Source of the DNA: Gemmatales bacterium
GTDB taxonomy: Bacteria; Planctomycetota; Planctomycetia; Gemmatales; HRBIN36
Length of the DNA stretch: 64,000 bases
NCBI GenBank assembly: GCA_046350055.1
Contig: JAXMBC010000001.1
Span: 1,214,660 to 1,278,659 of the forward strand
Reading direction: 5' to 3'
Shown here: positions 3,236 to 58,769 of the stretch, piece by piece
Numbering within the stretch: position 1 is the stretch's first letter
Layout: every line of letters starts with the position of its first letter
Translations under genes and position numbers: made by a program
Notes under the pieces: model-generated
The model's input: the letters and a program-made list of their open reading frames with translations, nothing else
The model's database searches: none
What the model was told of the DNA's origin: nothing

Positions 3236-4324
3236 CTACTTCTTCTTCTTCACCTCTTCCAGTAAGCTCCGGGCTTCTACCACCTGCTTCGTATCATCGT
3301 AATCGCTGATGATCTGCTTCAGGAAGTCCTCGGCAATACTGTAATCCTTCACCTTCATTGCCCGCTTGGCGAAGTTCAGTTTCGAGAGTGCTGCCTTCTC
3401 GCGCGGATCGAGTTTCTCCTCCGCAGGCTTCTCCTTCTCAGCCTTCGTCACTTCCTTGCTGCTCTCCGGTGCTGTCTTGTCCGGGCTGGCTTGTGCCACC
3501 GTTGTCGTACGGCGAGGAATAATCACCTTCTTGTCCTTCAGCAGTGTCTTCACTTCGCTCAGATCGATGAAGGTAGATAACTGGTTGGCCGAGGTGATGC
3601 CACCCTGGGTAACACCTACCAGCTCTCCTTCATCATTCACCAGCGGGCCGCCTGAATCACCTTTGTTGGTTGGATTGGAGCTTTCAATCATGCGGGCTTC
3701 GATGGTCAGCGATTCCCCCTGCCCGATCTGCACCACAAACTTCTTGTCGTAGATGCTGCGAACACTGCCATCGGTATAGCTCCACATGCCACCCGCCCCG
3801 GTGTTGCCAATAGTATGTACTCGCGAACTGGGCCGTGGACTATTCTGGGCCAGTGGCAGCGTCGTTACTCCCTTGGGCAGTTTCTGGCCTGCATCGAATT
3901 GCACTTCGACCAGGGCCAGGTCTTTGTTCTTCAGGTACGTCACAATCTTGCCCCGGAAGGTATAGATCGGATCGCCGCTGCTTTGCATGTACTTGCTGCG
4001 ATCCTGCTCCACTTCCCCCCGGCTGTTCTTGACCGGGAACATCACCCGCACTTCCGCATGGTTGCCATCGCTCTTCACACACGGAGCCACGACATGATAA
4101 TTGGTGATGATCAGGGGCAAATTGGTGCGGGGAGACAGCCCGATGAATGATCCGGAACCCGTCGCTGCCCGGCGACTCCCATCACCCAGGGGGGACAAGA
4201 CAAAGACAGTGCTGCGGAGTGTCTTGTCGAAGACGGTCTCACCCGCCTTGGTTCCCTGCGCGTGAATGGAGTGGCATGCAATTAGGAACAGGAGGATCGT
4301 CGCTGCGGCGCGCATAGGAAGCAC
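3236..4324 (-). CDS. secreted trypsin-like serine protease (S1C/DegP-type catalytic domain) with a Lys/Glu-rich C-terminal tail
   Basis: It has a signal-peptide-like N-terminus, a TNYHV histidine motif, a DLALV aspartate motif and a GDSGGPLV serine motif. Confidence 0.8.
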   Translation of the reverse strand: MLPMRAAATILLFLIACHSIHAQGTKAGETVFDKTLRSTVFVLSPLGDGSRRAATGSGSFIGLSPRTNLPLIITNYHVVAPCVKSDGNHAEVRVMFPVKNSRGEVEQDRSKYMQSSGDPIYTFRGKIVTYLKNKDLALVEVQFDAGQKLPKGVTTLPLAQNSPRPSSRVHTIGNTGAGGMWSYTDGSVRSIYDKKFVVQIGQGESLTIEARMIESSNPTNKGDSGGPLVNDEGELVGVTQGGITSANQLSTFIDLSEVKTLLKDKKVIIPRRTTTVAQASPDKTAPESSKEVTKAEKEKPAEEKLDPREKAALSKLNFAKRAMKVKDYSIAEDFLKQIISDYDDTKQVVEARSLLEEVKKKK

Positions 4325-23758: not shown

Positions 23759-24136
23759 TTATACCCCGCCCGCTGGCGGGAAGTCACCGACGCTGAAAGA
23801 GGCCCATGACAGCCCAGCGACGTGCGGTCGCCCCGACTTGGCGTCAAATACGCCTTCCAGAACGCTCACATTGTCATTCGCGATCAACGGCCCAGACACG
23901 AGCCAGTCGCTCGCAATACGGTTAGCAACGAGGAGTAATTCGAACACGCCCGTTGCCGCCGGGGATGAAAACGGGCTGCGAAGTGCGACCTCCCACAGCT
24001 CGGGCACCTTCCAATACGGCTTCGGAGCCTCGACGACTTCGGACGGAAGGACTTCGCGGGTTCGCGCAAGACACCGGTCGGCGCCCGCAGCGTCGTTCAC
24101 ACGAAACATCAGACGCCAGGCAACCTGAAGGGGCAT
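23759..24136 (-). CDS. cassette ORF g, hypothetical
   Basis: A 125-aa ORF from the ATG at 24136; the track starts it at the GTG at 24154. A GCCGAAC box lies just upstream (complement of 24157-24163) and a GCCTAAC box just downstream (complement of 23737-23743). Confidence 0.5.
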   Translation of the reverse strand: MPLQVAWRLMFRVNDAAGADRCLARTREVLPSEVVEAPKPYWKVPELWEVALRSPFSSPAATGVFELLLVANRIASDWLVSGPLIANDNVSVLEGVFDAKSGRPHVAGLSWASFSVGDFPPAGGV

Positions 24137-24172
24137 AACGTAGGTCCGGTGCACTGGTTCGGCGTCAGCGGC

Positions 24173-24493
24173 TCACCCACCGATCAGTTGCTGCCATCCG
24201 AGCAACGCCTGACGGAACTCGTCCAGCCCGACACGGCACACCGGCATGGACTCGTCCCACAGGCACTTGATCTCGGCCCCGGCAGCCGACAGGGTAAGCA
24301 GGAACGCATTGCCGGTGCCGCTGAACCCCGACTGACAACCTGCGGCGACCGCCTCTGCCATCTCCACCAACTCGGCAGCCCCGTTCGGGCTGGATTGGAC
24401 ATCCTGTTCCAAGAACCAGCCGACGGCCTCGTGTGGCGGAGCCACCTCGCACCGCGGGTAGCCATGCGCGTCTCGCAGGAACCGGGCTTCCAC
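24173..24493 (-). CDS. cassette ORF f, hypothetical
   Basis: A 106-aa ORF with a GTG start, preceded on the minus strand by GTTCGGCGGCGGAGGGCTTGCGGCA. Confidence 0.5.
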   Translation of the reverse strand: MEARFLRDAHGYPRCEVAPPHEAVGWFLEQDVQSSPNGAAELVEMAEAVAAGCQSGFSGTGNAFLLTLSAAGAEIKCLWDESMPVCRVGLDEFRQALLGWQQLIGG

Positions 24494-24600
24494 TGCCGCA
24501 AGCCCTCCGCCGCCGAACGACCCCGCTCAGCGGCCGCGGGGGCTCGGTGAGCTGTGAGTCGCAGAAACGCTACATGCCCCCGCCGGTCTGCTGCAGCGCC

Positions 24601-24834
24601 TGGATACTAATCATAGCCCTTCGGTTACAGTGAAGTCGGCGAACTTCACTCCAGGAGAGACTACGATGCGTTACTACACCCAGACTCACCCATACTACTG
24701 TGGCGTCGACCTGCACGCAAGAAGCCCGGGTGCCATAGCCTGCGTGTACTCACGCTGGCTATGCCGAGGTACCCCAAGGTTCCGGCATAGTCAGGTCGAG
24801 TACGACCAGACTAGGGCCCCCTTGCTATAGAGGG
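24601..24834 (+). mobile_element. recombinase-less remnant of an IS110/IS1111-family element inserted in an attC-like site
   Basis: The left end has the hairpin AGTGAAGT-CGGCGA-ACTTCACT and GGAGAG upstream of the ATG at 24666. It encodes MRYYTQTHPYYCGVDLHARS, where GVDLH corresponds to the N-terminal GIDxH/K motif of DEDD (IS110) recombinases. The ORF is then fused directly to module A1. Confidence 0.5.
24725..24817 (+). repeat. structured module A, copy 1 (candidate IS1111-type right end / guide RNA)
   Basis: H1 is 24734-24763 (CATAGCC-T-GCGTG TACT CACGC-T-GGCTATG). H2 is 24759-24790 (CTATGCCG...CGGCATAG). H3 is 24794-24807 (GGTCG AGTA CGACC). Confidence 0.7.
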
Positions 24835-25262
24835 GTTCGGCGTGCCTCTGCTTCTGCAGCCCACAGGGACCAATACCGCTCGGCCGCCGCCTCCAACTCC
24901 GCCTGCGACAGCGGCTGGCCCTCGGCGGTGGCTGCGTGTGTTGACGAGTACCGCGTCAGCAGGTAGCCGCCGCCCCCACGGTCCGAGCACTCGACGCGGA
25001 TGGCCCCCTCGGCCACCTCCGCCGACAGCACCTCCAGGCCGATCGCGGCGATGGCGACCGGGTCGGACACCGGCGGCCCCTCGTAGGGGTGGTACTCGAA
25101 CCGCTCGCACCCGGTGAGCGTGACCAGCACATGCTCGGCGCGGGTGGGCAGGTGGCCGCACAGGTACGAGATGCCGACTGACAGCCGGAGGTCGCCGGGG
25201 ACTGAGCCCTCGGCTGCCGACACCTCGCCGTCGTGCAGCACGTTCCAGATGGCGACATCCAC
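24825..25262 (-). CDS. cassette ORF e, hypothetical
   Basis: A 145-aa ORF with a GTG start and GGAGGG 9 nt upstream. The GCCGAAC box overlaps its last codons (CGC CGA ACC CCT CTA TAG). Confidence 0.5.
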   Translation of the reverse strand: MDVAIWNVLHDGEVSAAEGSVPGDLRLSVGISYLCGHLPTRAEHVLVTLTGCERFEYHPYEGPPVSDPVAIAAIGLEVLSAEVAEGAIRVECSDRGGGGYLLTRYSSTHAATAEGQPLSQAELEAAAERYWSLWAAEAEARRTPL

Positions 25263-25286
25263 CCGTTGCGCCCTCCGCCGCCGAAC

Positions 25287-25442
25287 AGATGCTTCTCTGA
25301 CCTATAGGTCAGAGAGTAAACTACACAGGTCAGATAATACCGGCTTGTCTCCAGCCTGGTCAAGCGATTACATCGAAACGTCGGCTTTCCTGATCTCCCA
25401 CTTTCTCCAAGCCGTCCACTAGCCACCACCCTGGTGTACAAG
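25287..25442 (-). promoter_or_regulatory. element B, copy 1 (short form): outward promoter plus palindromic operator/hairpin facing ORF e
   Basis: On the minus strand, TTGACC (25363-25358) is followed by an 18-nt spacer and TATTAT (25339-25334). A CTGACC half-site and the perfect 22-bp palindrome TCTCTGACCTATAGGTCAGAGA (25294-25315) follow. Confidence 0.55.
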
Positions 25443-25534
25443 CCTATCATAACAGGGAGGCAGGCCTGCGAAGGTCGTGGAGACGGTCTGTCTATAGAGT
25501 GCAGTAACCGTGGCACGATGAACTCCGCCGCGCG

Positions 25535-25630
25535 CCCGGGTGCCATAGCCTGCGTGTACTCACGCTGGCTATGCCGAGGTACTCCGAGGTTCGGGCATAG
25601 TCAGGTCGAGTACGACCAGAGGCCGTCCGG
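25535..25630 (+). repeat. structured module A, copy 2
   Basis: It is near-identical to copy 1, with H1 at 25544-25573. The H2 3' arm reads GGTTCGGGC. It is preceded by segment C, which ends in ATGAACTCCGCCGCGC. Confidence 0.7.
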
Positions 25631-25788
25631 TAATTGAGTTGATCTAAACTGCCTGATCTCTTGAGGTTACGTTGTTGTTTGCCAACGCCAACGCAACACA
25701 TCAGGAGATCAGGCATTGCTTAGTGCCAAGGACGGCACGTCGCTCGCCACGTTGATACAGCAAGCCATTCCTGTTTGTCAGGAAGCGG

Positions 25789-25890
25789 CGGGTGCCATAG
25801 CCTGCGTGTACTCACGCTGGCTATGCCGAGGTACTCCAAGCTTCCGGCACAGTCAGGTCGAGTACGACCAGGCTTTGGCACCCGTGCGAG
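25789..25890 (+). repeat. structured module A, copy 3, with a perfect closing stem
   Basis: The closing stem is CGGGTGCC (25789-25796) paired with GGCACCCG (25877-25884). H1 is at 25796-25825. The module ends at the stop codon of ORF d. Confidence 0.7.
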
Positions 25891-25894
25891 CCAG

Positions 25895-26413
25895 CTACCA
25901 AGTCCGATGATAGCGGAACCCATCGTGATCCGTGCCCTCGATGTATCCCATCGCTGACAATGTCTGTTCAGCCGCCCGCCGCCGCGTGAACCCGAGCAAG
26001 TCCTCGCGGCCGGCGTTCGTGAGTTCCGCGGCGACCCGCTCAAAGGTGCACCGCGGGTCGTGACCGAGCAACTCGGCCGAGCGCCACGGGAGCGGCATGA
26101 CCAAAAGCTTCTCCCGGTCGTCGTCGGGGTCCGCCAGACCCAGAGCGAGGAGGGCCAACTCGAGCGTCTCTAGGGACGCCCGGCGCACCGCCAGTGCAGC
26201 GGATCGCTCCGCGTAGCACAGCAGGACGGATGCTAGCCCGCCGTCCATGCAGCCGAGAAATTCGGCGGCAGACGGGCCAGCGTCACGGGCAGTCCGCAGG
26301 AGTGCCTCGACGGACTCATCAAGCGGATGAGGTATAGGCCGCGGGCCGTAGCCATCGTACACGCCGTCTCAGATTGCGGCGTCAACCCGGTCAGCAATGT
26401 CGTCGAGACCCAT
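25895..26413 (-). pseudogene. cassette ORF d with an in-frame TGA after codon 14
   Basis: On the minus strand, GAGGAGG lies upstream (7-nt spacer) of the ATG at 26413. This encodes MGLDDIADRVDAAI, then TGA (26371-26369), and the same frame continues DGVYDGYGPRPIP... to 25895. The track lists only 25895..26362. Confidence 0.45.
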
Positions 26414-26427
26414 CGCCCTGCCTCCTC

Positions 26428-26523
26428 GCCGAACGACCCCGCTCAGCAGCGGCGGGGCACCGGCGAGCTTGGACTCCCAGAACAGCGTCATGCCCCGCCG
26501 TCTGCTGCAGTGCCTCGTTCGGC
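26428..26523. other. intact attC-like site (96 bp)
   Basis: It runs from GCCGAAC (26428-26434) to GTTCGGC (26517-26523). The arms CAGCAGCGGCGGGGC and GCCCCGCCG-T-CTGCTG pair, leaving one unpaired T. Confidence 0.6.
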
Positions 26524-26529
26524 GTGCCT

Positions 26530-26931
26530 TTAGCTCATCTGGAGCCGGAACCCAATGCCCTCTGACGCTGCAACCCCAAGGACCCGCGCCATCTCCTCCA
26601 ACTCCTCGACCACTCCGGCGGACTCGTCGAGCCGCTTCGCCGCCTTCGGGCTGGCCTTGATGTGGTCGGCGAGGGCTTGCATCGCGGCCCGGCCCTCGGC
26701 CGGATCGAACCACTCAGTCCACTCGCCCATGACCTCCGCAAGGTCGTCCGGATCGCCGTCGAAATCCTCGGGGATCGGGCGGTTGTCCGCGAACGCCGTG
26801 AACGGCGTGAGCTTGGCCGCCCGTGCGATCTTGTCGAGTACCTCGAAGTTCGCCGCCAAGACCTCGCCGAGGGCGACGAACTTGGTGCCCGTCAGCTTGG
26901 GCTGGAACACTGGGTAGATGCCCAAGCTCAT
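26530..26931 (-). CDS. cassette ORF c, hypothetical (acidic; immunity-protein-like flavour)
   Basis: A 133-aa ORF with the ATG preceded by GGCGGAGGGCAAGCGG. It reads MSLGIYPVFQPKL...PEDFDGDPDDLAEVMGEWTEWFDPAEG. Confidence 0.55.
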   Translation of the reverse strand: MSLGIYPVFQPKLTGTKFVALGEVLAANFEVLDKIARAAKLTPFTAFADNRPIPEDFDGDPDDLAEVMGEWTEWFDPAEGRAAMQALADHIKASPKAAKRLDESAGVVEELEEMARVLGVAASEGIGFRLQMS

Positions 26932-26954
26932 CCGCTTGCCCTCCGCCGCCGAAC

Positions 26955-27173
26955 AGTTGTTTCTCTGACCTATAGGTCAGAGAGTAAACTACACAGGTCA
27001 GATAATACCGGCTCGACTCCAGCCTGGTCAAGCGATTAGCCTCGGATGGTCCAATTCCCTGACCTAAACTCTGATGAAGCTCCTCGACTACTGACAAACT
27101 CTGTCTCGACCTTTCAGTTTACTATCTGCAACTTTCTCCAAACCGTTCACTAGCCACCACTCTGGTGTACAAG
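26955..27173 (-). promoter_or_regulatory. element B, copy 2 (long form): outward promoter plus palindrome facing ORF c
   Basis: On the minus strand, TTGACC (27031-27026) is followed by an 18-nt spacer and TATTAT (27007-27002). The palindrome is at 26962-26983. Confidence 0.55.
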
Positions 27174-27174
27174 T

Positions 27175-27290
27175 CCGGGTGCCATAGCCTGTGTGTACTC
27201 ACCCTGGCTATGCCGAGATACTCCAAGGTTCCGGCATAGTCAGGTCAAGTACGATCAGACTAGGGCACCCGGGCACCCGTGCAGCGACTG
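27175..27290 (+). repeat. structured module A, copy 4, with a closing stem and full 3' tail
   Basis: The closing stem is CCGGGTGCC (27175-27183) paired with GGCACCCGG (27264-27272). The tail GCACCCGTGCAGCGACTG abuts GTTCGGC (27291-27297). Confidence 0.7.
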
Positions 27291-27304
27291 GTTCGGCGGC
27301 GCCC

Positions 27305-27772
27305 TCACTCTTTAATACCCCAGCCCGCTAGTCGTTCCTTATGAGCGGCCGTGACTGCATTTTCATACGCAGCAGGGTCATTGAGCAATGTGGGCAGAAT
27401 GATTTTCTCGATGTCATCGACGACCGCATCAACGATGTCGCGCCCATCCGTCGTTTCGACGGCCCACTGCTTTTCGTTAAACCGGACTGCGCTTTCGCTA
27501 GCCCGGCCAAGCCGTTTGATCAAGTCGTCGTGACCACAAAGGAACTTCCCGTAATCATAGTTCGGTAATCCTAACTCGTCGTACCGAACAATCAGTCCGA
27601 TCTTTACCGGAGGCCTAATGTAAAATCCGTTTGAAAAAGGGCCGCCAGAACTGACAGCATTGTGTTCGGCCTCAAAGACGAATCCGTGCGGATTCAGGAT
27701 CGGATCGAGCCGGGCGACAATTGCGAGCAGGCGATCGTGCGGTTGTCCCAGGTATTTTGAGGACTTACTCAT
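27305..27772 (-). CDS. cassette ORF b, hypothetical
   Basis: A 155-aa ORF from the ATG at 27772 (MSKSSKYLGQPHD...). The track start at 27799 lies inside the attC-like site. Confidence 0.55.
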   Translation of the reverse strand: MSKSSKYLGQPHDRLLAIVARLDPILNPHGFVFEAEHNAVSSGGPFSNGFYIRPPVKIGLIVRYDELGLPNYDYGKFLCGHDDLIKRLGRASESAVRFNEKQWAVETTDGRDIVDAVVDDIEKIILPTLLNDPAAYENAVTAAHKERLAGWGIKE

Positions 27773-27787
27773 GTCAGTCACCAAGCC

Positions 27788-27882
27788 GCCGAACGACACC
27801 GTTCACCTGCGAGGCGGCCGGTGAGACGTTGAACCCTGAAAAACCGTGATGCCGCCGCGTCAGGTGCAACGGCTGGTTCGCT
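27788..27882. other. intact attC-like site (95 bp)
   Basis: It runs from GCCGAAC (27788-27794) to GTTCGCT (27876-27882). The arms CACCTGCGAGGCGGC and GCCGCCGCG-T-CAGGTG covary relative to the site at 26428-26523. Confidence 0.6.
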
Positions 27883-27890
27883 GCGGCCCC

Positions 27891-28436
27891 TCAGTCGCAG
27901 TCTTGGTAGCCACCCAACTGACCACATTTTCTGCACCGAAACATGTACGCAGTCGGTGATCCTTCCTTGTCGAGTGCGGCGAGAAACTCCTCCCACTCGG
28001 GGCCATCTGAAAGGCCCGCGGAATCTTGAATCGCAGCTATTGCTTGTGGACCGAGAGCCTTCAACTCCTTCTTCCCAGCGCGCCCGATGAACTCAGCTGC
28101 ATCGCCACAATGGGTCCACCATTGCTCTTGTTGCCAGCCCGAGAATCCGGGAGTGCGATGGGCCACCTCCTCGATCACCTCTTCCGGCACTTCATCCCAC
28201 ATCCCGCCGCCGCCAATGCCGGCATCGTCGGTGAAGCTCGCTTCCAGTTTTTCATTAGCGGACCCGTCTGCGATGCACCAGGGGCATATGCATTGGTCGT
28301 ATTCCTCCACGGCGTAAACGGGGCCGGTGTAGATGAAGCCGCACGCCTTCCCACAGCAGGCGCATTCGGTATCGGACTTGATGACCATTCCGGTCGCCAA
28401 GGGGTCAGGGTGGTACTTGAAGGTTGGCAGTGCCAC
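27891..28436 (-). CDS. cassette ORF a, CbrC/UPF0167-family protein (colicin-tolerance-associated family)
   Basis: It reads LPTFKYHPDPLATG...CACCGK...CPWCIADGSA...FRCRKCG. It has a GTG start with AGGAG 7 nt upstream. Confidence 0.65.
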   Translation of the reverse strand: MALPTFKYHPDPLATGMVIKSDTECACCGKACGFIYTGPVYAVEEYDQCICPWCIADGSANEKLEASFTDDAGIGGGGMWDEVPEEVIEEVAHRTPGFSGWQQEQWWTHCGDAAEFIGRAGKKELKALGPQAIAAIQDSAGLSDGPEWEEFLAALDKEGSPTAYMFRCRKCGQLGGYQDCD

Positions 28437-28459
28437 GGTCGACTCCTAAAGCAGCGAAC

Positions 28460-28679
28460 AGTTGTTTCTCTGACCTATAGGTCAGAGAGTAAACCACACA
28501 GGTCAGATAATACCTGCTTGTCTCCAGCCTGGTCAAGCGATTAGCCTCGGAAGGTCCACTTCCCTGACCTAAACTCTGATGAAACTCCTCGACTACTGAC
28601 AATACTCTGTCTCGACCTTCAAGTTTACTATCTCCAACTTTCTCCAAACCGTCCACTAGCCACCACCCTGGTGTACAAG
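28460..28679 (-). promoter_or_regulatory. element B, copy 3 (long form): outward promoter plus palindrome facing the cbrC-like ORF
   Basis: On the minus strand, TTGACC (28536-28531) is followed by an 18-nt spacer and TATTAT (28512-28507). The palindrome is at 28467-28488. On the plus strand it is followed by segment C (28680-28770), but no module A is present. Confidence 0.55.
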
Positions 28680-29189
28680 CCTATCATAACAGGGAGGCAG
28701 GCCTGCGAAGGTCGTGGAGACGGTCTGTCTATAGAGTGCAGTAACCGTGGCACGATGAACTCCGCCGCGCACACAATCGCACGGTTGGTTGCATCGCCAC
28801 GAGGTGCTGCAGACGCGGCAGGATGCCGCGTCTACTTTGCGCACATGCGGTGCTGGGGATGAACCACTTCGCGTGCACGCGAGCCTTCAGATGGCGCGGG
28901 CGCGAATAGTTTGCTGCTGCATGAATCGACGGTGCACAGAATTCTGACGTAAGTCATTGACATCATTAACGATGCGCTGCGCACGAGTGGTTTGCCAGAT
29001 GAACTGAGACTGCACTGCCCCCGACTCTGCGACCCAAAGCCTCCCGCATACGGTGGATGTCGCCCTGAATCCACACCTCACCTTCACGCCAACCCTCGCT
29101 GCCATCCCTATACTAAACAGTTGCCAAGTCACCCAACCATTCGCCCCGCTCCTTCACTCTTCCGCTAAGGAGTCGGGCCAGGAAAGCAC

Positions 29190-31031
29190 ATGAAACGGAA
29201 CGATATTCGCAATGTCGCCATCATCGCCCACGTCGATCATGGCAAAACCACGCTCGTCGATGAAATGCTCAGGCAGTCAGGCCTCTTCCGCGCCGGCGAA
29301 CTCGAGAAGCTCGAAGGAGGCCAGCACGGCCTCATCATGGATTCCAACGAACTGGAACGGGAGCGGGGCATCACCATCCTCGCCAAGAACTGTGCCATCA
29401 AGTGGGGCGATACCAAGATCAACATCATCGATACCCCCGGCCACGCCGACTTCGGTGGCGAAGTGGAACGCGTCCTTCGCATGGCGGACGGTGCCGCACT
29501 GCTGGTCGATGCCGCCGAAGGCCCGTTGCCTCAGACCCGCTTCGTGCTCCGCAAGGCGTTCGAGTGTGGCCTCAAGCCCATTGTGGTGATCAACAAGATC
29601 GATCGTCCCGATGCCCGGGTGCAGGAAGTGCTCAATGGCATCTTCGATCTCTTCGTCGATCTCGATGCCGATGATGCGACCTGCGACTTCCCCGTGGTGT
29701 ATGCCTCGGGCCGCAATGGCTGGGCCAAGCTCAGCATGGATGACGAGAGCAAGGACTTGCGTCCCCTCGTCGAAACCATCATGAAGCACGTGCCGCCGCC
29801 TGATGTGAACCTGGATGCACCAGCCCAGTTCCAGGTGAACAACCTCGACCACAGCGAATTCGTCGGCCGCATTGCCGTGGGCAAGGTCTACGCTGGCAAG
29901 CTCAAGAAGAACCAGCGCGTGGCGGTGCTCTCCCGCGACAACAAGCGGACCGATTACAACATCAAGCAATTGCTGACCTTCGACCGTCTCGGTCGCAACG
30001 AGGTGGAGGAAGTGACCGCTGGCGACATCTGTGCCATCGTCGGCCTGACCGATGTGGAAATGGGCGACACGGTAGCAGATGTCGATCATCCCAATCCCCT
30101 TCCAGCACTGAAGGTCGATGAACCAACACTGACGATGCTCTTCCGCATCAACGATTCGCCCTTCTCCGGGCGTGATGGTGAGTACGTCACCAGCCGGCAG
30201 TTGCGCGACCGTCTGTTCAAGGAACTGGAACGCAACGTGGCCCTGCGGGTCGTGCCGGCAGCCAAGTCCGACGAGTTCATGGTCTCAGGCCGAGGTCTTC
30301 TGCACCTGGGCATTCTGCTCGAGACCATGCGCCGCGAAGGCTATGAGCTCAGCGTCGGCAAGCCCCGTGTCATCATGAAGGAAGAAGGGGGCATGAAGCT
30401 GGAGCCGGTGGAATACCTTGTGATCGAGTGTCCGCAAGGGTCCGTCGGTTCCGTCATGGAACTCGTCGGCAATCGCCGGGCAGAATGCCTGAAGATGGAT
30501 GCCCGAGGCGAACTGACCCACCTGGAGTTCACCATCCCCGCCCGAGGTCTCATCGGCCTCAAGACCCGGCTGCTCACTGCCACCAGCGGTCAGGCCATCA
30601 TGCACCACACGTTCTACGACTATCAGCCCAGCCGTGGAACCATCCCGTCACGGACCAACGGCGTGATGATCGCCACCGAAACTGGCCCCGCCACGTTCTA
30701 TGCCATTGAAGGCTTGCAGGACCGGGGCGTCATGTTCGTCTCGCCGCAGGATCAGTGTTATGAAGGACAGATCGTGGCCGAGCATTGCCGCGACAATGAC
30801 CTGCCTGTGAATATCGCCCGTGAGAAAAAGCTGACCAACATGCGGAACGCCAACGCCGAAAAGACGGTGGTGCTCAAGGCTCCCCGGCAGATGACGCTGG
30901 AAATGGCTCTCGAGTACATCGAAGACGATGAACTGGTGGAGATCACACCAAACTTCATCCGGCTACGGAAGATGATGCTCAAGGAAGCTGACCGCAAACG
31001 GTTCGACCGGTCGAACCGGGAGGCGGAATAA
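29190..31031 (+). CDS. typA: translational GTPase TypA/BipA
   Basis: It starts [24 protein letters not shown], has [12 protein letters not shown] and NKIDR, and is 613 aa long. Confidence 0.9.
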
Positions 31032-34460: not shown

Positions 34461-34487
34461 CGGAGAGCTGCTGTCGTGCTTGACTGG

Positions 34488-36302
34488 TTACTTCGAGTAG
34501 CCAGCCTGCTGAACCATGCCCGCCTTCATCATCGAGCTGATCACATCGTTGGCAGCTTCCTTCACGCGGGGATCCATATCCACCGAAGCGTGGGCCAGCA
34601 TGTTCAGCACTTCAGGACGGGTAGACTTCATCGAAGCCAGCGTGCGGATGGCGGCAACCTTCACCAGTGGTGCACGGTCATTCTGTGCCGCAGTCAGCAG
34701 CGCGTCTTCCACGTAGGGACGAACCGTTGGCAGCGTGGCCTGTTCCAGCCGCTGGGCAGCCCACTGGCGGTTTTCCCATTCCTTGGACTGGGCCAGCACA
34801 TTGATCAGCTGCATGGTGTTGGCCACAGCGTCGCCATTACCAGGATTCATCTGGTGAATGCCAGCCATGATTCGATCGTTCATGCCGTCGCCGAAGGGCT
34901 GATTCAGGCAGTAGTAAGGAACCACGTTGGGGGAGTTCATGTAGCACCGGATAGAACTGCTGTTCATGGTGCAGAACGCGGGAACCATGGGTTGAGGAGG
35001 TGGGCCACCGGGTGTGCCATTGACTGCTGTCAGGTGCACGCCGGGAACTGGCACATTGATTTCGTCCTCGCGAACGCGATGACCACGATGGCTGCGGCCA
35101 TGCCCCACTCCATGCTTGCTGCAGGCGTCGCAGCTGCCTTCAGGGCCGCCACATGTGGCACACTTCGAAGCAGCACACTGGCTATCGCAGGCCTTGGCAG
35201 TAGCACAGGGATCGCAAGCCTTGGTGGCAGTAGCACAGGGATCGCAAGCCTTGGTGGTAGTGGCACAGGGATCGCATGCCTTGGTGGCACACGGGTCACA
35301 CGCCTTGACTGGTGCAGCAACTGTCTTGTAGGGGTCACACACCTTGGCCGGTGCAGCAACCGTCTTGCAAGGATCGCAGGCCACCTTGGCTGGCTCGCAG
35401 GGCTTGCATTCAGTCTTGGCTACAACTGGCGGGCAAGCAGGCTTGCAAGGCTCACATTTCACCGGAGCAGGTGCACAGGCAACTGGTGCACAGGCAGTCT
35501 TAGGTGCACAGGCAGTACCACAGCTATCGCAGTTCAAGGTCACTACTTCGTTGTTATCCAGTGCCTGGCAGCGATGGGTCATCACGCCGTGAGCATCACG
35601 AGCAGTGCCCAGAATCTTGTACTTGCGGGCCTTGCCGTTTTCCGTGATGGTGATCACTTCGCAGCCACCTACCAGTTCACGTGTGGTAGCAGCAGCGGGG
35701 GCAGGAGCCGTTTGCACAGGTGCAGCCTGGACAGAGACAGGAACCTGTGTCGGAACCACTGGCACCGAAACCGTATTCTTGATCGTCGCTGGTGCAGCCA
35801 CTTCCTTGCGGACGGGTGCAACTTCAGACTTGATTGGCTGCGAAGCCACAGGAGCGCTGACAACAGGCTTGGCTACTTCGTTCCTGGGAAGCAGCGGAAT
35901 CAAGCCGCCGTCCACAGACTGTACCTTGTCGCCATCCACAGGCACCTGATGACCGACTTGCTTGACTGCAGCATCAGCTGCAGGAGCCACCGGGCAACCC
36001 GTCGGGCGAACGCCGTTGACCCAGCGATAGAGCTTGATGCGCTCAGCAGCGCTCTTGGCCTTGGTGTTTTCCACCAGGGTCAGTTCCGTCTTGCTGGTGT
36101 TGGTTGTGGCTTGCATCACGGGCGTGCCGTCAGCGAGACGCCATACCTGGGTAATGACAGCCTTCTCCGTGGGGAAGTTCTTTTCCACCACTGTGATAGT
36201 TTTGCCCAGGCGCTGGTCCAGGGCGGGGAATGCATCATCAGCCTGGGCTGCACTGGTGCAGGCCAGCAGACAGACGAGCAACGCGGGGGCAACACGACAC
36301 AT
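34488..36302 (-). CDS. secreted protein with a Cys-rich tandem-repeat region and C-terminal HEAT repeats
   Basis: It has a signal peptide (MCRVAPALLVCLLACTSAAQA) and KACDPCAT repeats. The C-terminus has HEAT-like helices (VKVAAIRTLASM...DPRVKEAAND). Confidence 0.7.
   Translation of the reverse strand: MCRVAPALLVCLLACTSAAQADDAFPALDQRLGKTITVVEKNFPTEKAVITQVWRLADGTPVMQATTNTSKTELTLVENTKAKSAAERIKLYRWVNGVRPTGCPVAPAADAAVKQVGHQVPVDGDKVQSVDGGLIPLLPRNEVAKPVVSAPVASQPIKSEVAPVRKEVAAPATIKNTVSVPVVPTQVPVSVQAAPVQTAPAPAAATTRELVGGCEVITITENGKARKYKILGTARDAHGVMTHRCQALDNNEVVTLNCDSCGTACAPKTACAPVACAPAPVKCEPCKPACPPVVAKTECKPCEPAKVACDPCKTVAAPAKVCDPYKTVAAPVKACDPCATKACDPCATTTKACDPCATATKACDPCATAKACDSQCAASKCATCGGPEGSCDACSKHGVGHGRSHRGHRVREDEINVPVPGVHLTAVNGTPGGPPPQPMVPAFCTMNSSSIRCYMNSPNVVPYYCLNQPFGDGMNDRIMAGIHQMNPGNGDAVANTMQLINVLAQSKEWENRQWAAQRLEQATLPTVRPYVEDALLTAAQNDRAPLVKVAAIRTLASMKSTRPEVLNMLAHASVDMDPRVKEAANDVISSMMKAGMVQQAGYSK
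35191..35380 (-). repeat. in-frame tandem DNA repeats (27/30-nt units, then ~39-nt units)
   Basis: gccttgg(tgg)cagtagcacagggatcgcaa occurs 3.5 times and ggtgcagcaacYgtcttg occurs twice. Together they encode the (K)ACDPCAT(T)TK and CDPYKTVAAP motifs. Confidence 0.8.
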
Positions 36303-36541
36303 GGCCTGGCTCTCCTTGCTTATTCTGAGCGCGCAGTCTCTGCGGGGAGACCTCTCAGTGAACCTGTGCGGGTTTGCTCACCGAGACGATGCGCGCGGCT
36401 TCTAACAGTGTTGCCCTGTGTATCGTCTTGGAAAGTTTAACCGCATGAGGGGAAGGGAACGAAGATGCGGAGGATGCACAGGGTAGGGGGCTTCAATGTG
36501 CACAACTTAACTCTGATACCGATTAGGTAAGATGGGTAACC

Positions 36542-49006: not shown

Positions 49007-50377
49007 ATGCACCGCTGGCAAGGATGCCTGTTACTCCTCATCGCTGGGCCGTTATGGGCTCAGGAATGGCGTCCTGTCTCGCAAATACCGGCGGAGCCGA
49101 CTGCCCCTGTCATCAAACTGGGCAAGCCACGGCTGACTCGCAGCGAAACTCCCGAACTGGTAGCCCAGCCACTGCCTCGGGAATCCATCAAGTATCAATC
49201 CACTCGGTACAACGATCTGGCCAGCGTGCCCGAACCAGTCTTTGGCGGCCAGCCACTCAACCTGCTGCAAACCCGCTACCAGGGGCCGGGCAGTGCTGCC
49301 GAAGAAGCATTCAACTGCGGCCAGGTTCCCGGCTCAGGCGGCGGAGCAGCACCCCCTGCTGGAGCACCTGCTCCATACTACGGTCAGACTGCTCCTCCCC
49401 CCGGTGCTGCTCCGGGTGCCCCTGCACCGTACTACGGCCAGCCAGGGGCTCCTCCACCGGGCGCCCCGGCTTCCAGCACTACACCCTGGTATCAGCCCGT
49501 CAAAGACTGCTGGAACCGCATCTTCGGTGGCGGCAGTTCCAATAACGGCATACCTGGCACCTGGGATGCCCGCAGCGATCAGGGCTTCAAGGACTTCATT
49601 TCGCCCGTCAGCAACCCGACCTACTTCGAAGACCCCCGTTCGCTCACCGAGTTCCGCTTCATTGGCACCTACCAGAAATCGCCTGACGACAACATCCTGA
49701 TGGATGGCGGTCAGATCCTCGACTTCAACTTCCAGGGACGCATCAGCATCAATGACAACTGGTCGCTGACGTTGCAGCGGCTGGGCTTCTCCAACGTCAA
49801 ACCCGGCAGTGCTGCTCTCGGTGGCTACTCCGGCGGCACCGGGTTTAACGATCTGCAAATGGGCGTCAAGTACACCTTCCTGCGTGATACCCGCAGCGAA
49901 AGCCTGCTCGCTGCGGGCGTGAGCTTTGAGCTGCCCATCGGCAGCAGCAATGTCCTCTCGGGCAGTGGCACCGGCATCACCCCCTACCTGAGCTACGGCC
50001 AGGGCTTCATGGATAACTGGCACCTGCTTGCTGCAGGCGGTTACCGCTTCGGCATCTCCAGCGGCAGCAGCGACTTCCTCTTCCTCAGTGGCCACCTCGA
50101 TTATGGCTTCTTCAAGCGGTTCTATCCGCTCGTCGAAATGAACTGGTACTACTACACCGGCAACGGCGACCGCCAGCCAGTCGACTTTGAAGGTGGCGAT
50201 CTCAAGAATATCGGCGCCAGTGGCGTGGCAGGCAGAAGCCTCGTCACACTGGCCGGTGGCTTCCGCTTCAAGTTCAGCGAATCGCTCCAGGCCGGTATCA
50301 TCTACGAGATGCCTGTCGTCGGCACCGATATGCTGGAAAAGTACCGGGTGATGTTGGATTTCATCATTCGGTTCTAA
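49007..50377 (+). CDS. putative outer-membrane beta-barrel protein with a Pro/Gly/Ala-rich linker
   Basis: It has a signal peptide (MHRWQGCLLLLIAGPLWAQ) and an alternating-pattern C-terminal half ending ...LDFIIRF. Confidence 0.45.
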   Translation: MHRWQGCLLLLIAGPLWAQEWRPVSQIPAEPTAPVIKLGKPRLTRSETPELVAQPLPRESIKYQSTRYNDLASVPEPVFGGQPLNLLQTRYQGPGSAAEEAFNCGQVPGSGGGAAPPAGAPAPYYGQTAPPPGAAPGAPAPYYGQPGAPPPGAPASSTTPWYQPVKDCWNRIFGGGSSNNGIPGTWDARSDQGFKDFISPVSNPTYFEDPRSLTEFRFIGTYQKSPDDNILMDGGQILDFNFQGRISINDNWSLTLQRLGFSNVKPGSAALGGYSGGTGFNDLQMGVKYTFLRDTRSESLLAAGVSFELPIGSSNVLSGSGTGITPYLSYGQGFMDNWHLLAAGGYRFGISSGSSDFLFLSGHLDYGFFKRFYPLVEMNWYYYTGNGDRQPVDFEGGDLKNIGASGVAGRSLVTLAGGFRFKFSESLQAGIIYEMPVVGTDMLEKYRVMLDFIIRF

Positions 50378-50447
50378 GGTTGTAACGTCATTATTTAGAG
50401 CCTCACCAACGATTTGATGAGGCCATCACATTTAAAGTTTAGAGCGT

Positions 50448-50636
50448 TTATTTAGATTGCTGGCTAGATTCTTGCTGAGTAACCTTCAATTGCGAACTAA
50501 CTACTGGAGTTCGTGCAACGTTTACAGTGGGCTTTGCTGAGTTTTCCAATAGGTTCTGCTTCCACTCAGGCCAAGTTTGCACGACTCTCTGTGCAATCTC
50601 CTGTTGTCTCTTAAATTCGTCCCTGCTCATCATCAT
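50448..50636 (-). CDS. small hypothetical protein (62 aa), translationally coupled to the deaminase gene
   Basis: The sequence ATGATGATGA overlaps the deaminase stop codon. The gene lies in the AT-rich islet. Confidence 0.4.
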   Translation of the reverse strand: MMMSRDEFKRQQEIAQRVVQTWPEWKQNLLENSAKPTVNVARTPVVSSQLKVTQQESSQQSK

Positions 50637-51542
50637 GCCTCCTGTACTCCAAGCATTTCGGATTGGAGCTTACCAAAGAGTCTACAAGCATTTGCCTCAT
50701 CTTCCAGATATGAGGTGGGCTTCATTTGTATCCTCAGTCGTGATTTCTCGATAGTCCAATCAACTTTAGTGCCATCTGAGTTCTTCCTAACAATATCGTA
50801 ACTCGCTCCAAGGTTCATTGAGAATAAGTCGAAGAACCTTCGAGGACCAATTCCAACAAATGCGTCGAATTTAACCCTTGACGATTCTTCCGCTAATCCA
50901 GGTGGGCAGATTGCGTCTTCATGGAAGTCAAGGGCTTTGCTTTTTGGATATGGCTCGACATAAACAACCCGCTTAACCCCTGCTGCAATAATATGCTTAG
51001 CACAGTTGTGGCATGGAAAGGTCGTGCAGTACAATGTTGTACCTATGGTTGACAAACCGTTTCGTGAACAACAAAGAAGTGCCTCCATCTCGGCATGGAC
51101 TACTCTGCCGTACTCAGTCAAGTCACGAAGAGGACTTTCATCCAGCAAGCTCCTCACTTTTGCTTCATCTGCAGCAGGAATCGCAATCTTCAATCTTTCT
51201 ACGATGCGATCGATAATCTCAAGCTGTTCAGCTCTATTTGAATCACCGGCCTTTCGCATATAGTCTCTTCCATTCGGCGTGTCACATATTCTTCTAGTAG
51301 TCAGATCTCTATTGGGCCAATAAAGGCCACCCTGAGCCTTTGGGCAGTCATTTGCACCTGTTGACAATATCTGAGAATCTATTGTAACTACTGCTCCTAC
51401 CTGCCTCGACATATCAGCTGATCTTAACGCAGAAGCAAATGCCATAAACATTGCATGTTCATCGAAGGTTGGCGTGACATAAGGATCACCAAACCATAGC
51501 GATACTATTCTTGTAATATCATGTCTAAGTTGATCGCGATTA

Positions 51543-52389
51543 GGCCGTGTTGACATTGATCTAGCATAAGTTGGGGCAGAGCGGTAAACCAGTGAAGTCC
51601 AAGGAAGGATTTTCTGGAGAAAGATCATGCGACGATTCGAGCTCACGGATGAGCAGTGGGAGAAGATCAAGCACCTGCTGCCAGGCAAAGAAGGCGATTC
51701 AGGACGTACGGCCAAGGACAATCGACTCTTTATTGATGCTGTGTTGTGGACGGCCCGCACCGGTGCTCAGTGGCGTGATTTGCCTGCTCGCTTTGGTAAC
51801 TGGAACAGCATCTATCAGCGGTTCAATCGCTGGGCCAAGGCGGGGCGTTGGCAGGAAATCTTTGAGCGAATGCAAGATCCTGATCTGGAATGGCTGCTGA
51901 TCGATTCGACGATTGTCAGGGCCCACCAGCATGCAGCAGGAGCCCTGAAAAAAGGGGAGACCAAGCGTTGGGACGATCTCGGGGAGGACTGGGAACCAAG
52001 GTCCACATTGCCTGCGAAGGGCTTGGGTTGCCAGTTCGCTTCCTGCTAACTGGTGGCGAAGTGCATGATGTCACGCAGGCGTCAGCCTTGATCGATGGAA
52101 TCTCCGCGGAACAAGTCATCGCCGACAAGGGCTACGATAGCGATGCAGTCGTTGAGAAGATTGAGGAGCAAGGCGGTACGGCCATTATTCCTTCCAAGAG
52201 CAACCGCAAAATGCCTCGTCCCCATGACCGCGCGACCTATCAGGAACGGAATCGGATTGAGCGTTTGATCAATCGTCTGAAACAATGTCGCCGGATCGCG
52301 ACTCGCTACGACAAAACCAGTCGCAACTTCCTGGCATTCCTCTACTTAGCGGGCACCATGCTCTGGCTGGCGTAATTGTCAACACGGCC
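51543..52389 (+). mobile_element. IS5-family (IS427-like) insertion sequence, 847 bp
   Basis: The 13-bp terminal inverted repeats are perfect: GGCCGTGTTGACA (51543-51555) and TGTCAACACGGCC (52377-52389). They are flanked by a TA direct duplication (51541-51542 and 52390-52391). Confidence 0.85.
51627..52375 (+). CDS. IS5-family DDE transposase, made from two frames joined by a -1 frameshift at an A6G run
   Basis: OrfA reads MRRFELTDEQWEKIKHLLPG...IVRAHQHAAGALKK. The slippery run GAAAAAAG is at 51947-51954. The downstream frame reads GDQALGRSRGGLGTKVHIA...DKGYDSD...RNRIERLINRLKQCRRIATRYDK. Confidence 0.8.
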
Positions 52390-53064
52390 TAGATGATATC
52401 CTGACAAAAAAGTCTGCTAAATGAAATGTTTTGTTCACACGTTGGCCATGAACGACATTTGTTTCATCGCTATCACGAGCAATCAGGCTTCTTGCTTGAT
52501 CTTCGCTCATTCCTCGATCAGTCTGAAGGTGAACGAGCCGCCGAGACTCATCCGCATGAACCCCAATCAATACGAACCCATGTGGATAAATCCGGCGTAA
52601 TTGCGCAACCTCTTCTGGCCGTTTCAGCGAATTAATAATGTAGGCTGTTTTTGGGGATGGTTTGGATTGGTCATTCTCCTTGTCTCGCTTTGCAAAAATC
52701 ATCGATGCAGCACCTAGTGCTAATATTTCACATTTGCCACTTGCCTCCCTTGCACGATTACCCGCATCCATGAGGTTACTAATGCGCATAAACTGACATG
52801 AACCATGGTCAGGTACAGTACACAAAGTCGGAATAACCTCTTCGGATACTTTCATTGAAATGACATTGTAGCCCGCTAGGTTCAATCGCTCCTTCAGCAA
52901 TTCAGTAATCAAAGTAGTTTCAGTACCAACTGCACTAACCAAGCCAATAACAAGTTCGGAATCGAAATCTGTCGTCATGTTATCAATCCTTTTAGTGAAC
53001 ATTCCATAGTATATTTGCAAAAATGAAGTAATGCAAAAAAACATATGCATATTAACGGTTACTT

Positions 53065-56981: not shown

Positions 56982-58769
56982 ATGAACACATTACACCGAT
57001 TTACTCGTATCGATTTCGAACGATTCAAGGCTTTCGAGAAATTCAGTATACACCTGCGTCATTTCAACATACTTGTGGGCCCAAATAACGCTGGGAAGTC
57101 TACCATCTTAACAGCCTTCCGTATCTTGGCGGCGGCAATGAGAAAGGCAGTTGTCCGAAGGCCTGAAGTAGTCATGGGCCCAAAGGGTGAAACATTAGGT
57201 TATCACGTTGACATAGGTGCCATATCCGTAAGTGAGGAGAACATCTTTTTTAATTATGATGACACTGAACCGGCATCCGTCAGATTTTCACTATCGAATG
57301 GCAGAAGGCTGGTACTCTATTTTCCAGCAGAAACAAGAAGATGTAATTTAATATGCGAAAGTAGTGATCGTTGTGACAATCCTACGGCCTTTAAGAAACA
57401 GTATAGTTGTTCAATTGGCTTTGTGCCTGTTTTGGGGCCCGTCGAACATTTCGAACCACTCTACGAGAAGGAAGCAGCACGTCAGGCACTATTCAACTAC
57501 CATGCAGCAAGGAACTTCAGAAATATCTGGTATCATTATCCGGAGCAATTTTCAATTTTCCGTGAAACACTTAATCGAACTTGGCCAGGCATGGATGTTA
57601 AGCCACCTGAGATTGAGCGTTCGTTAGCGAGGCCTCGGCTCGTTATGTTTTGCCCAGAGCAGAGAATCCCTCGCGAAATCTGCTGGTCTGGGTTTGGGTT
57701 TCAAGTTTGGTGTCAAATGTTGACTCATATTATTCAATCTAAAGAAGCGTCATTGTTTCTAATTGATGAGCCTGACATCTATTTGCATGCAGAACTACAA
57801 CGTCAACTACTTGTATTACTTCGCAATCTCGGCCCTGATATCCTTATCGCTACTCATTCTACAGAAATCATTACCGAGTCCGAGCCAGATGATATTGTGC
57901 TTATTAATAAGGAACGCAAAAGCGCACGGCGGCTTAAGAACCCTGCAGAATTATTCGAGGTATTTCATCTATTGGGATCGAATCTGAATCCAATACTAAC
58001 GCAACTTGCCAGAACTCGTAAGGCTGTATTTGTGGAGGGAAAAGACTTCCAGATACTTGGGCGATTTGCGCAAAAGCTGAAGAAATCAAAAACCAGTGTA
58101 CGTGGAGGATTTGCAGTGATCCCAGTAGAAGGATTTAACCCACAAAAGATCAAGAGCTTAAAACACGGGATGGAGACGACTTTAGGTGGCAAGATTCTTG
58201 GAGCAGCAATACTTGATAAAGACTATCGATCCAATGAAGAATGCAGTTCTATTGAAAAAGAAACTGCGTTGTTTTGCGATATCGTATCGATCCATAAACG
58301 CAAAGAGATTGAGAACTTTTTGCTAGTTCCTAGCGCCATTGATCGAGCTGCACAGCGTCGTGTCTCAGATCAAGCAGCCCGATCAGGTAAGAAGGTGGAA
58401 TATAATGCATGTGCGCAGAAAGTACTAGAACAGTTTGCTGCTGAAAAAAAAGAGGCTGTAATTGCCCAGTATCTTTCAGGTAGACGAGCATTCGAAAGAG
58501 CGCGAAGCACAGGCTCTCACGATGCAACTTTGAGTGAATCTGTATTGAAGGAGTGTGGACGTGCATGGCAATCTTTCGATTCTCAAATGCTTCTTGTACC
58601 TGGAAAAGAGGCTTTGAGCGCAGTCAACCAGCAATTACAGAAAGATTATGGAGTAAGCATCACGCCCACAGCTATTATCGAAGCAATGCGTGTTGATGAA
58701 GTACCTTCCGAAATGACAGTGCTTATCGAGACGATCGAGCAATTTGCAAATCGAAGTATTACTAACTAA
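56982..58769 (+). CDS. OLD-family ABC-ATPase / Toprim nuclease-like protein (class-1 OLD or fused PARIS-like architecture)
   Basis: It has Walker A GPNNAGKST, Walker B LIDEPDIYLH and an H-loop IATHS. The C-terminal half carries Toprim-like VFVEGKDF (Glu) and ILDKDY (DxD). The gene is AT-rich. Confidence 0.65.
   Translation: MNTLHRFTRIDFERFKAFEKFSIHLRHFNILVGPNNAGKSTILTAFRILAAAMRKAVVRRPEVVMGPKGETLGYHVDIGAISVSEENIFFNYDDTEPASVRFSLSNGRRLVLYFPAETRRCNLICESSDRCDNPTAFKKQYSCSIGFVPVLGPVEHFEPLYEKEAARQALFNYHAARNFRNIWYHYPEQFSIFRETLNRTWPGMDVKPPEIERSLARPRLVMFCPEQRIPREICWSGFGFQVWCQMLTHIIQSKEASLFLIDEPDIYLHAELQRQLLVLLRNLGPDILIATHSTEIITESEPDDIVLINKERKSARRLKNPAELFEVFHLLGSNLNPILTQLARTRKAVFVEGKDFQILGRFAQKLKKSKTSVRGGFAVIPVEGFNPQKIKSLKHGMETTLGGKILGAAILDKDYRSNEECSSIEKETALFCDIVSIHKRKEIENFLLVPSAIDRAAQRRVSDQAARSGKKVEYNACAQKVLEQFAAEKKEAVIAQYLSGRRAFERARSTGSHDATLSESVLKECGRAWQSFDSQMLLVPGKEALSAVNQQLQKDYGVSITPTAIIEAMRVDEVPSEMTVLIETIEQFANRSITN

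Follow-up and report, generated by a model that had tools for sequence, protein, structure and literature searches.

What has stacked two copies of one short module in a single junction between two small genes? The question is raised by junction J2 (25280–25894) of an integron-type gene-cassette array, which occupies 24.1–28.8 kb, cassettes on the minus strand, of a 64-kb stretch (hereafter the window; 64,000 nt of contig JAXMBC010000001.1) from a metagenome-assembled genome of Gemmatales (Planctomycetota). In our reading, to which we give a probability of about one half, the module, designated A, forms the body of attC-like sites that belong to a second, lineage-specific class. Among the features behind this reading are the spacing of core and hairpin on the gene strand, an unoccupied copy of A in a metagenome contig, and the restriction of the window copies to the array. 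J2 would then be a scrambled piece of a known gene-capture system, probably frozen, and no new kind of element; the most economical account of its tandem is that two or three cassette sites were left adjacent by coding content that was lost or absent.

An attC site is an imperfect palindrome of about 57–141 nt that folds as a single-stranded hairpin and carries the cores R'' (RYYYAAC) and R' (GTTRRRY). The array contains six co-oriented minus-strand open reading frames (ORFs), each with GTTCGGC and GGAGG before it and GCCGAAC after it; read on its own strand (the gene strand), each gene is introduced by GTTCGGC, GGCGGAGG and the start codon, and GCCGAAC stands at the far side. The genes (24.1–28.5 kb) are small; one matches UPF0167, one matches UPF0231, and the others are without a family. 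GCCGAAC/GTTCGGC occurs 19 times in the window, and 10 of these occurrences lie within 24157–27794, bordering the small co-oriented ORFs. Junctions J3 and J5 are plain imperfect palindromes of ~95 nt whose terminal 7-mers are paired, which is the anatomy of integron attC sites. A tblastn search of the 64 kb, including the DNA after the second copy of module C (C2), revealed no similarity to an integron integrase; the array resembles a cluster of attC sites lacking integron integrases (CALIN) and is integrase-free within the window. No transposase body was detected in the window either, and Rfam gave no match in 24000–29500 at E-values up to 5 and only a tRNA in the whole window.

On the plus strand, J2 runs in the order GCCGAAC, B1, C1, A2, a unique segment U (~166 nt), A3, and the stop codon of ORF d, as a sequence-only reading of the same DNA had described it. 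Its features are as follows:

25280–25286, minus strand: R'-type core, GCCGAAC on the plus strand; the gene strand reads GTTCGGC, GGCGGAGG, start of ORF e
25287–25442, minus strand: B1, putative promoter module, with TTGACC-18-TATTAT at 25363–25334, then a palindrome; ends at G|TT
25443–25533, minus strand: C1, 99% identical to 28680–28770; its right end (25518–25533) is ATGAACTCCGCCGCGC and holds CTCCGCCG
25537–25631, minus strand: A2 hairpin, core 25537–25619, degenerate tail AGGCCGTCCGG, no adjoining R'' or R' core
25620–25788, no strand assigned: unique segment U, with its own ~115-nt hairpin at 25622–25736; no relative found
25786–25901, minus strand: A3, core 25789–25871, tail GCTTTGGCACCCGTGC to 25887, 7 nt (25888–25894), and CTACCAA at the R'' position (25895–25901)

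Copies, hairpin and layout of module A

A repeat search of the window revealed four copies of A (24722–24821, 25532–25631, 25784–25883, and 27171–27270) and none elsewhere in the 64 kb. Their 83-nt cores, which run from CGGGTGCC to GACCAG (24727–24809, 25537–25619, 25789–25871, and 27176–27258), are 91.6–96.4% identical in pairwise comparison. The window copies of A lie in one 3.5-kb array and every copy of A, B, and C lies within 24.5–28.8 kb, a clustering that cannot be put down to chance. A does not end at GACCAG. The shared right-hand module that the sequence-only reading recognized is real, but in A1, A3, and A4 it extends ~14–16 nt further (ACTAGGGCACCCG..), and this extension pairs with the 5' end of A, so that A and its tail form a single imperfect hairpin of ~105 nt; in A2 the tail is only degenerate.

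Outside the window, a metagenome scan found one real relative of A, the 1.8-kb contig L011, which holds two copies; a further copy lies in contig L021. The 7 copies from 3 sources (4 in the window, 2 in L011, and 1 in L021) preserve 36 pairs, and one pair is compensatory. The fold is stable relative to shuffled sequences, with RNA z-scores of −7.2 (A4) and −5.9 (L011 copy 2) and single-stranded DNA (ssDNA) z-scores of −4.6 to −5.2. Both arms carry bulges, the long, near-perfect stem contains internal alternative hairpins, no run of T follows the hairpin, and the apex holds GCCGAGG..GGTTCGGGC, which resembles both target strands (GCCGAAC/GTTCGGC). Searches for A beyond these sources gave little. 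A short A hairpin motif had only chance matches in 185,579 GTDB representative genomes; an 18-base A pattern had six single matches in unrelated viral contigs, assumed to be chance; B2 plus A4 had no match among plasmids (blastn); and ORFs read across A, B, and C had no match in a protein search. No flanking direct repeat is common to the seven copies, the arms being inverted and ~15 nt long. Two identifications were rejected: a plain miniature inverted-repeat transposable element (MITE), given that there is no target-site duplication and the window copies are not dispersed, and a group II intron remnant, given that the region has no GUGYG start and no domain V match.

The layout of A-type junctions can be compared with that of the plain sites in the following part of the array:

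25895–26362, minus strand: ORF d, cassette ORF without a Pfam family; stop codon 25895–25897
26428–26523, minus strand: J3, intact plain attC, GCCGAAC..GTTCGGC, 96 nt, cores paired, z = −5.4
26948–27297, minus strand: J4, with R' core 26948–26954, B2 26955–27173, A4 27176–27275, and R'' core 27291–27297
27788–27880, minus strand: J5, intact plain attC

One gene-strand layout, R'', 7 nt, and TGCA, is found at both plain attC sites, J3 and J5, and at the A-type junction J4; J1 and A3 are close variants of it. At A1 and A4, 7 nt separate R'' (GCCGAAC) from the hairpin, and at A3 R'' is degenerate; in J4, an 8-nt duplication follows the A4 hairpin, and then come 7 nt (27284–27290) and the R'' core. 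This R''-side spacer varies in sequence, and it behaves as an unpaired spacer would and a transposon terminus would not. A1, A3, and A4 sit after ORF e, ORF d, and the ORF at 27305–27772, respectively, and small ORFs likewise immediately precede the A copies of L011 and L021. The gene-strand sequence after A1, A3, and A4 starts with TTC, (C)TTC, and TTG, respectively, like the 5' ends of cassettes. Downstream neighbours of A are all different, with a TT start in three of the four window copies. A thus has two properties of attC, a foldable palindrome of ~105 nt and a place 3' of ORFs in a co-oriented array. A complete site of this class would read, on the gene strand, cassette ORF, R'' (GCCGAAC), 7 nt, TGCACGGGTGCC, imperfect palindrome of ~105 nt, and R' (GTTCGGC), and would be a substrate of an integron integrase.

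In L011 copy 2, on the gene strand, A is followed directly by TGC-GTTCGGC-GGCGGAGG and an ORF; this copy is unoccupied and has no left partner. The sequence-only reading noted that the units share a right module and differ in their left parts, and this is borne out: the left boundary of A is constant and site-specific, and it faces at least six unrelated neighbours (B2, C1, U, an insertion sequence (IS) left end with 20 codons, the transposase N-terminus of L021, and the GCCGAAC core of L011). If A is attC-like, its constant plus-strand left boundary is the downstream cassette boundary, so the neighbour differs at every site. The further proposal that A is the right end of a mobile unit whose left part is B or C found no support. 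A has the R''-7 nt-TGCA architecture of plain attC and no left partner in L011, and the closest full-length IS (described below) does not carry it at its right end.

A very unlikely account of A is that it is a palindrome like a terminator or a repetitive extragenic palindromic (REP) element, with no role in recombination, on which IS110-family elements land. IS110-family elements use REP elements as landing sites in Pseudomonas and Escherichia coli. A is indeed a long hairpin behind genes, IS110-family remnants adjoin it, and two IS relatives of the same clade as the remnant in the window (contigs L022 and L026) adjoin hairpins that start with GGTGC. All copies in the 64 kb are, however, confined to the cassette array and flanked by the cores of plain attC sites, the T-run of a terminator is missing, and the short motif has no copy in the representative genomes, all of which speaks against such a palindrome.

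The IS110-family remnant at junction J1 and the case against A as attC-like

Junction J1 lies next to J2, at lower coordinates, and contains the remains of a transposase gene:

24512–24595, minus strand: body of a plain J3-type attC, 81% identical to 26428–26523; R' core (GCCGAAC on the plus strand) at 24512–24518
24596–24725, plus strand: left end of an IS1111/IS110-family element (GGATACTAATCATAGCC..) plus 20 codons of a DEDD transposase, fused to A1
24724–24841, minus strand: A1 hairpin, core 24727–24809, tail to ~24826, 7 nt, R''-type GTTCGGC at 24835–24841 near the end of ORF e
24825–25262, minus strand: ORF e, cassette ORF without a Pfam family

The attC body has no R'' box of its own, and its R''-proximal end is interrupted by the IS remnant. 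Its transposase part starts at ATG 24666, begins with MRYYTQTHPYYCGVDLHARS, is antisense to the cassettes, and runs directly into A1. Searches with phmmer against 1.8 billion representatives and with a profile identified it as the N-terminus of an IS110-family (PF01548) clade, its relatives carrying PF01548 or the IS110 family name; in Pfam and NCBIfam, neither the 20-aa nor the 54-aa peptide matched any family. The 70 nt before the ATG align with the left ends of the relatives, with a score that 0 of 200 shuffles reached, and the left repeat region (24603–24617) aligns with contigs L022, L025, L026, and L028. IS1111/IS110 elements have subterminal inverted repeats of 11–13 bp, with 7 bp outside the left repeat and 3 bp outside the right one. 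For the left repeat at 24606–24617, no partner was found to the right of A1 or nearby. The sequence GCTATAGAGGG after A1 was considered as the right subterminal repeat and rejected, as its homologue in A4 is the R''-side spacer and arm, and it has no partner. Of a DEDD transposase gene (PF01548 plus PF02371), only the 20 N-terminal codons at 24666–24725 were found, and none inside J2. From this remnant, attC-targeting elements of the IS1111/IS110 family appear to have acted at the boundaries of the array.

Contigs from elsewhere place the remnant in context. In L028, a J3-type attC from another cassette array carries the IS110 clade of the window at the equivalent position, and in the ISKpn4 control (L024) the element is antisense to the cassettes with its right end 8 nt from the R'' core. 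The closest full-length relative, in L022, is of the IS1111 type: its subterminal inverted repeats measure 12 bp, and 365 nt of non-coding DNA follow its transposase gene (tnp). Neither its right-end non-coding region nor that of the ISKpn4 control contains an A-like hairpin. In L021, a different IS110-type N-terminus of 17 codons (MSTILAIDLGKYNSILC) is fused to A at the identical base.

Several observations on the remnant's clade stand apart. The best 120 profile matches to the transposase N-terminus are all ORFs of 31–74 aa, several of them on contigs of 50–130 kb, and this dominance of short ORFs is due partly to ranking by the HMMER length model and partly to frameshifts. Solo remnants of left end plus N-terminus seem common in the clade. 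The sequence of L025 breaks after a codon (..HARS) that matches the break in the window, and L028 (JGI 3300037760 Ga0395787_0034557) has, at 3655–3925, two stacked truncated transposase N-termini of 31 and 16 codons, a second example of stacked left-end fragments.

The junctions with the remnant, together with the state of the A copies, weigh against A as an attC-like class: (i) none of the four window copies has an intact GTTCGGC directly downstream, and the sole A with a downstream GTTCGGC is in L011, a short contig that ends before the R'' side of that copy; (ii) A2 and A3 keep neither core intact; (iii) at the junctions of A1 and A4, TT is preceded by C, where an integrase crossover would have G; (iv) in L011, the hairpin arm adjoins R' without an unpaired spacer, which is atypical for attC; (v) six of the seven A copies are preceded by non-core sequence; (vi) two A copies follow truncated, mutually unrelated IS110-family N-termini at the same base of A; (vii) set against J3, J1 has the appearance of a clean insertion that comprises left end, 20 codons, A1, and tail and sits between the R'' core and the plain-attC spacer, with 13 identical bases (GTTCGGCGTGCCT) on the far side, and if J1 is such an insertion, A1 lies inside the inserted element; and (viii) the integrase that would act on A was not found in the 64 kb by tblastn.

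Some of these points enter the main rival account, possible but doubtful, in which A is the right-end non-coding module of attC-targeting IS1111/IS110 elements, either like a seekRNA or, in the manner of MITEPpu9/ssr9, a hitchhiking MITE; B, B-C, U, and the sequence at 24596 would be left ends, the units would be internally deleted or modular derivatives, and the tandem would have arisen by repeated RNA-guided insertion at one R'' core or by independent movement of A. The clean antisense insertion by the R'' core that J1 shows against J3 is what IS1111-attC elements and the ISKpn4 control do, the unrelated N-terminus in L021 is joined to A at the same base as the one in J1, and the A apex resembles both strands of the target. 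The size of A (83–105 nt) is comparable to that of seekRNAs, which are 70–100 nt and lie downstream of tnp in IS1111 (PMC11187229), and for ISPpu9 both modular circles and a small-RNA module in tandem copies have been described (PMC12288879). This account requires, however, that two dissimilar transposase N-termini and unrelated left ends share a right module of 86–96% identity. It also has to accommodate right ends in L022 and ISKpn4 without an A-like hairpin, the missing right subterminal inverted repeat beside A1, and, in J4 and J2, the absence of any attC body beside the supposed element. The 7–20 nt past the hairpin are wholly different in A1, A3, and A4, where transposon termini should be best conserved, and A stands alone against an R' core in L011 copy 2. 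B and U are unlike IS left ends, and B contains no transposase remnant.

A bolder variant, which we regard as unlikely, takes A as an attC-mimicking module of guide-RNA type that hitchhikes with several unrelated IS110/IS1111 transposases and guides them, or itself, to the R'' cores of cassette sites, and B as a mobile promoter module that inserts at the same cores. It would describe a small ecosystem of non-coding parasites that rewire the expression of an integron array.

Modules B and C and the origin of the tandem

The repeat search revealed three copies of B (25282–25442, 26950–27173, and 28455–28679), of which B1 is a variant that lacks 65 internal nt present in B2 and B3, and two copies of C (25393–25533 and 28630–28770), which are 99% identical. 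The last copies of both are found at the edge of the array:

28448–28770, minus strand: J6, array edge, with the R'-type core variant GCGAAC, B3 28455–28679, and C2 28680–28770

Each B copy carries TTGACC-18-TATTAT on the minus strand, pointing at the next ORF. A B-like module in L011, which lies between two ordinary cassette ORFs, keeps the hexamers (TTGACT-18-TAATAT) and has a diverged spacer. In B, the promoter motif is followed by a 20-bp palindrome (CTCTGACCTATAGGTCAGAG), a 7-nt spacer, and G|TT. Conservation among the four copies, L011 included, ends exactly at G|TT, beyond which they read TTCGGC.., TTCGCT.., and TTATTC..; B therefore has a core-type junction at its end. B, or C plus B, may be a repeated cassette-like module with no ORF or with a micro-ORF only, and by its motifs would supply a sigma-70-type promoter firing into the next cassette ORF. 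In L011, another palindrome of ~200 nt (GATAGGACAGCCCAGGGCAACGCCCTGGG...CCCAGGGCGTTGCCCTGGGCTATC) lies between the B-like module and A (830–1020, minus-strand reading). The B/C boundary at 28651–28700 (..GCCACCACCCTGGTGTACAAGCCTATCATAACAGGGAGGCAG..) is 82% identical over 51 nt to 480–530 of contig L031 (E = 2.6e-8 in a 26-kb search), an intergenic region upstream of proS in a related Gemmatales contig without an array; this likeness could reflect a shared promoter-like or regulatory motif.

The two C copies stop at the identical base although their right neighbours differ. Their end contains CTCCGCCG, the Shine-Dalgarno/core motif of cassette 5' ends on the opposite strand, an 8-mer that the window holds 14 times (3.8 expected), with 6 of these occurrences in the array. 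The sequence-only reading had suggested that a gene was deleted between C and A. Neither the common end of the C copies nor the motif within it suits a lost gene, the 35-codon ORF after C2 has no relative in protein searches, and we see no evidence in the sequence that the ATG at the end of C opened a lost gene. A gene remnant fused to A does exist, at J1 (24666–24725), and it is that of the IS110-family transposase.

Whether B-C is instead the remnant of an integron platform (attI-like site, Pc, divergent promoter, and lost intI start codon) copied three times into the array, J2 being such a remnant joined to attC sites, can be judged from the same features, and we consider it quite unlikely. 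B ends in a G|TT core after AAACAAC and its promoter motif points outward to the first ORF, B3-C2 sits at the array edge where a platform is expected, and the ATG at the end of C is on the strand from which intI would be read. The C copies, however, both end at the same base after five codons, the window is without integrase similarity also after C2, the L011 module has ordinary cassettes on both sides, and we know of no precedent for three integron platforms inside one array.

If A is attC-like, J2 may be what is left of at least two or three cassettes, their coding content having been lost or absent from the outset. On the gene strand it reads ORF d, A3, 45 nt, hairpin U, A2, C, the B promoter motif, GTTCGGC, Shine-Dalgarno sequence, and ORF e. 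The degenerate R'' of A3 (CTACCAA) overlaps the ORF d stop codon and no GTT follows the A3 hairpin, and the R''-side arm of A2 is degenerate. Because neither A2 nor A3 keeps its GTT core, both sites are probably dead and the arrangement frozen; loss of the cores would have fixed it. Integrase recombination at secondary sites, IS-mediated deletion, or microhomology could each have contributed, and any order of these events would be a proposal drawn from one genome.

U has an inner 10-bp stem that is exact, as the sequence-only reading stated, and occurs only once in the window; its position is 25651–25714, one base from the 25650–25713 given there. An outer closure (GCCGTCC at 25622–25628 with GGACGGC at 25730–25736) completes its hairpin, with an ssDNA fold z-score of −5.2. 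U as a further IS left end was rejected because its similarity does not exceed that of shuffled sequences, and B and U alike showed no similarity to IS left ends above shuffles, B being without a transposase remnant. Linkage of B, C, and A recurs with order and orientation kept, not only in the window but also in a second organism (L011), which is not the independent, random occurrence that would separate them. The idea of repeated insertion next to a regenerated target comes close in spirit to cassette insertion at an attC core; what lacks support is a mobile unit with B or C on the left and A on the right.

Beyond J6 lie unique DNA and then the native region upstream of typA. When the typA neighbourhoods of four relatives (TypA identity 92–99.7%) were compared, the DNA upstream of typA was without an array in three; the contig of the fourth (L032) begins just 26 nt upstream of typA and is uninformative there. 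The array is therefore strain-specific at this position, as judged from the three relatives. Searches with the cassette proteins of the window found only Logan contigs of ~1 kb, which break at repeats. The unique DNA at 28771–29100, between C2 and the typA upstream region (conserved in the relatives from ~29070), holds a hairpin with a 10-bp stem (AGACGCGGCA..TGCCGCGTCT) and has no integrase similarity; the right edge of the array is somewhere inside it. After J3, at 26369–26413, a core, GAGGAGG, and an ATG open a frame of only 14 codons; ORF d begins at GTG 26362 in another frame, and a frameshifted cassette gene or a short leader is possible. Elsewhere in the window, three head-to-tail copies of a 30-nt unit (TGGCAGTAGCACAGGGATCGCAAGCCTTGG) lie at 35195–35289 inside the ORF at 34476–36440, with weaker copies at 1069 and 35510, and the G+C fraction is 0.43–0.49 at 50000–53000 and 57000–59000 against ~0.58 elsewhere, possibly marking foreign DNA.

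Comparison with known systems

Integrons of Planctomycetota have barely been studied. If A is an attC-like class, two attC classes coexist in a chromosomal cassette array of this phylum, a repeated promoter-bearing module could drive distal cassettes, the locus shows decay by attC-targeting IS110-family elements, and an array can become fixed after loss of its crossover cores. The general understanding of integrons or IS110 elements is left unchanged by the locus. The truncated IS110-family left ends at the foot of hairpins, in the window and in L021, L026, and L028, are a concrete lead on the scars that IS110/IS1111 elements leave.

Like the attC sites of sedentary chromosomal integrons and CALINs (for example, the ~120-nt repeats of Vibrio cholerae), A is a palindrome of ~100–125 nt after promoterless, co-oriented ORFs, near-uniform within the array, with inverted 7-nt cores (..AAC and GTT..), a spacer of ~7 nt, and variable downstream sequence. 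It differs from them in that (i) the window copies have no intact downstream GTT core; (ii) the stem is unusually long and near-perfect; (iii) the R'-side spacer is missing in L011; and (iv) no integrase is found within 64 kb.

Elements of the IS1111-attC group (ISPa21, ISPst6, and ISKpn4) insert near the R'' end of attC, antisense to the cassettes (PMC3001079), and the remnant at 24596–24725 likewise lies near the R'' (5') end and is antisense. By contrast, it comprises only a left end and 20 codons without a right subterminal repeat, it belongs to another clade (MRFYTQQH.YYCGIDLHARSMY..), and neither ISKpn4 nor L022 has a counterpart of the adjoining A hairpin. MITEPpu9/ssr9 of the Pseudomonas putida element ISPpu9 resembles A as a short structured module after IS110-family genes, single or in tandem, with constant boundaries. 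Boxes that repeat the IS ends flank ssr9, which is located in REP sequences, whereas A has no such boxes, joins unrelated transposase remnants, and sits in cassette junctions.

Finally, the Pout promoter of group IIC-attC introns and the promoter-bearing or ORF-less cassettes place a promoter in a junction toward the next cassette, as B would do; such a promoter would bring back expression at a distance from Pc or beyond structured DNA. B differs from the introns in its size of 160–225 nt, in having no intron or ribozyme signature (no Rfam match), and in ending at a core-like G|TT of its own.

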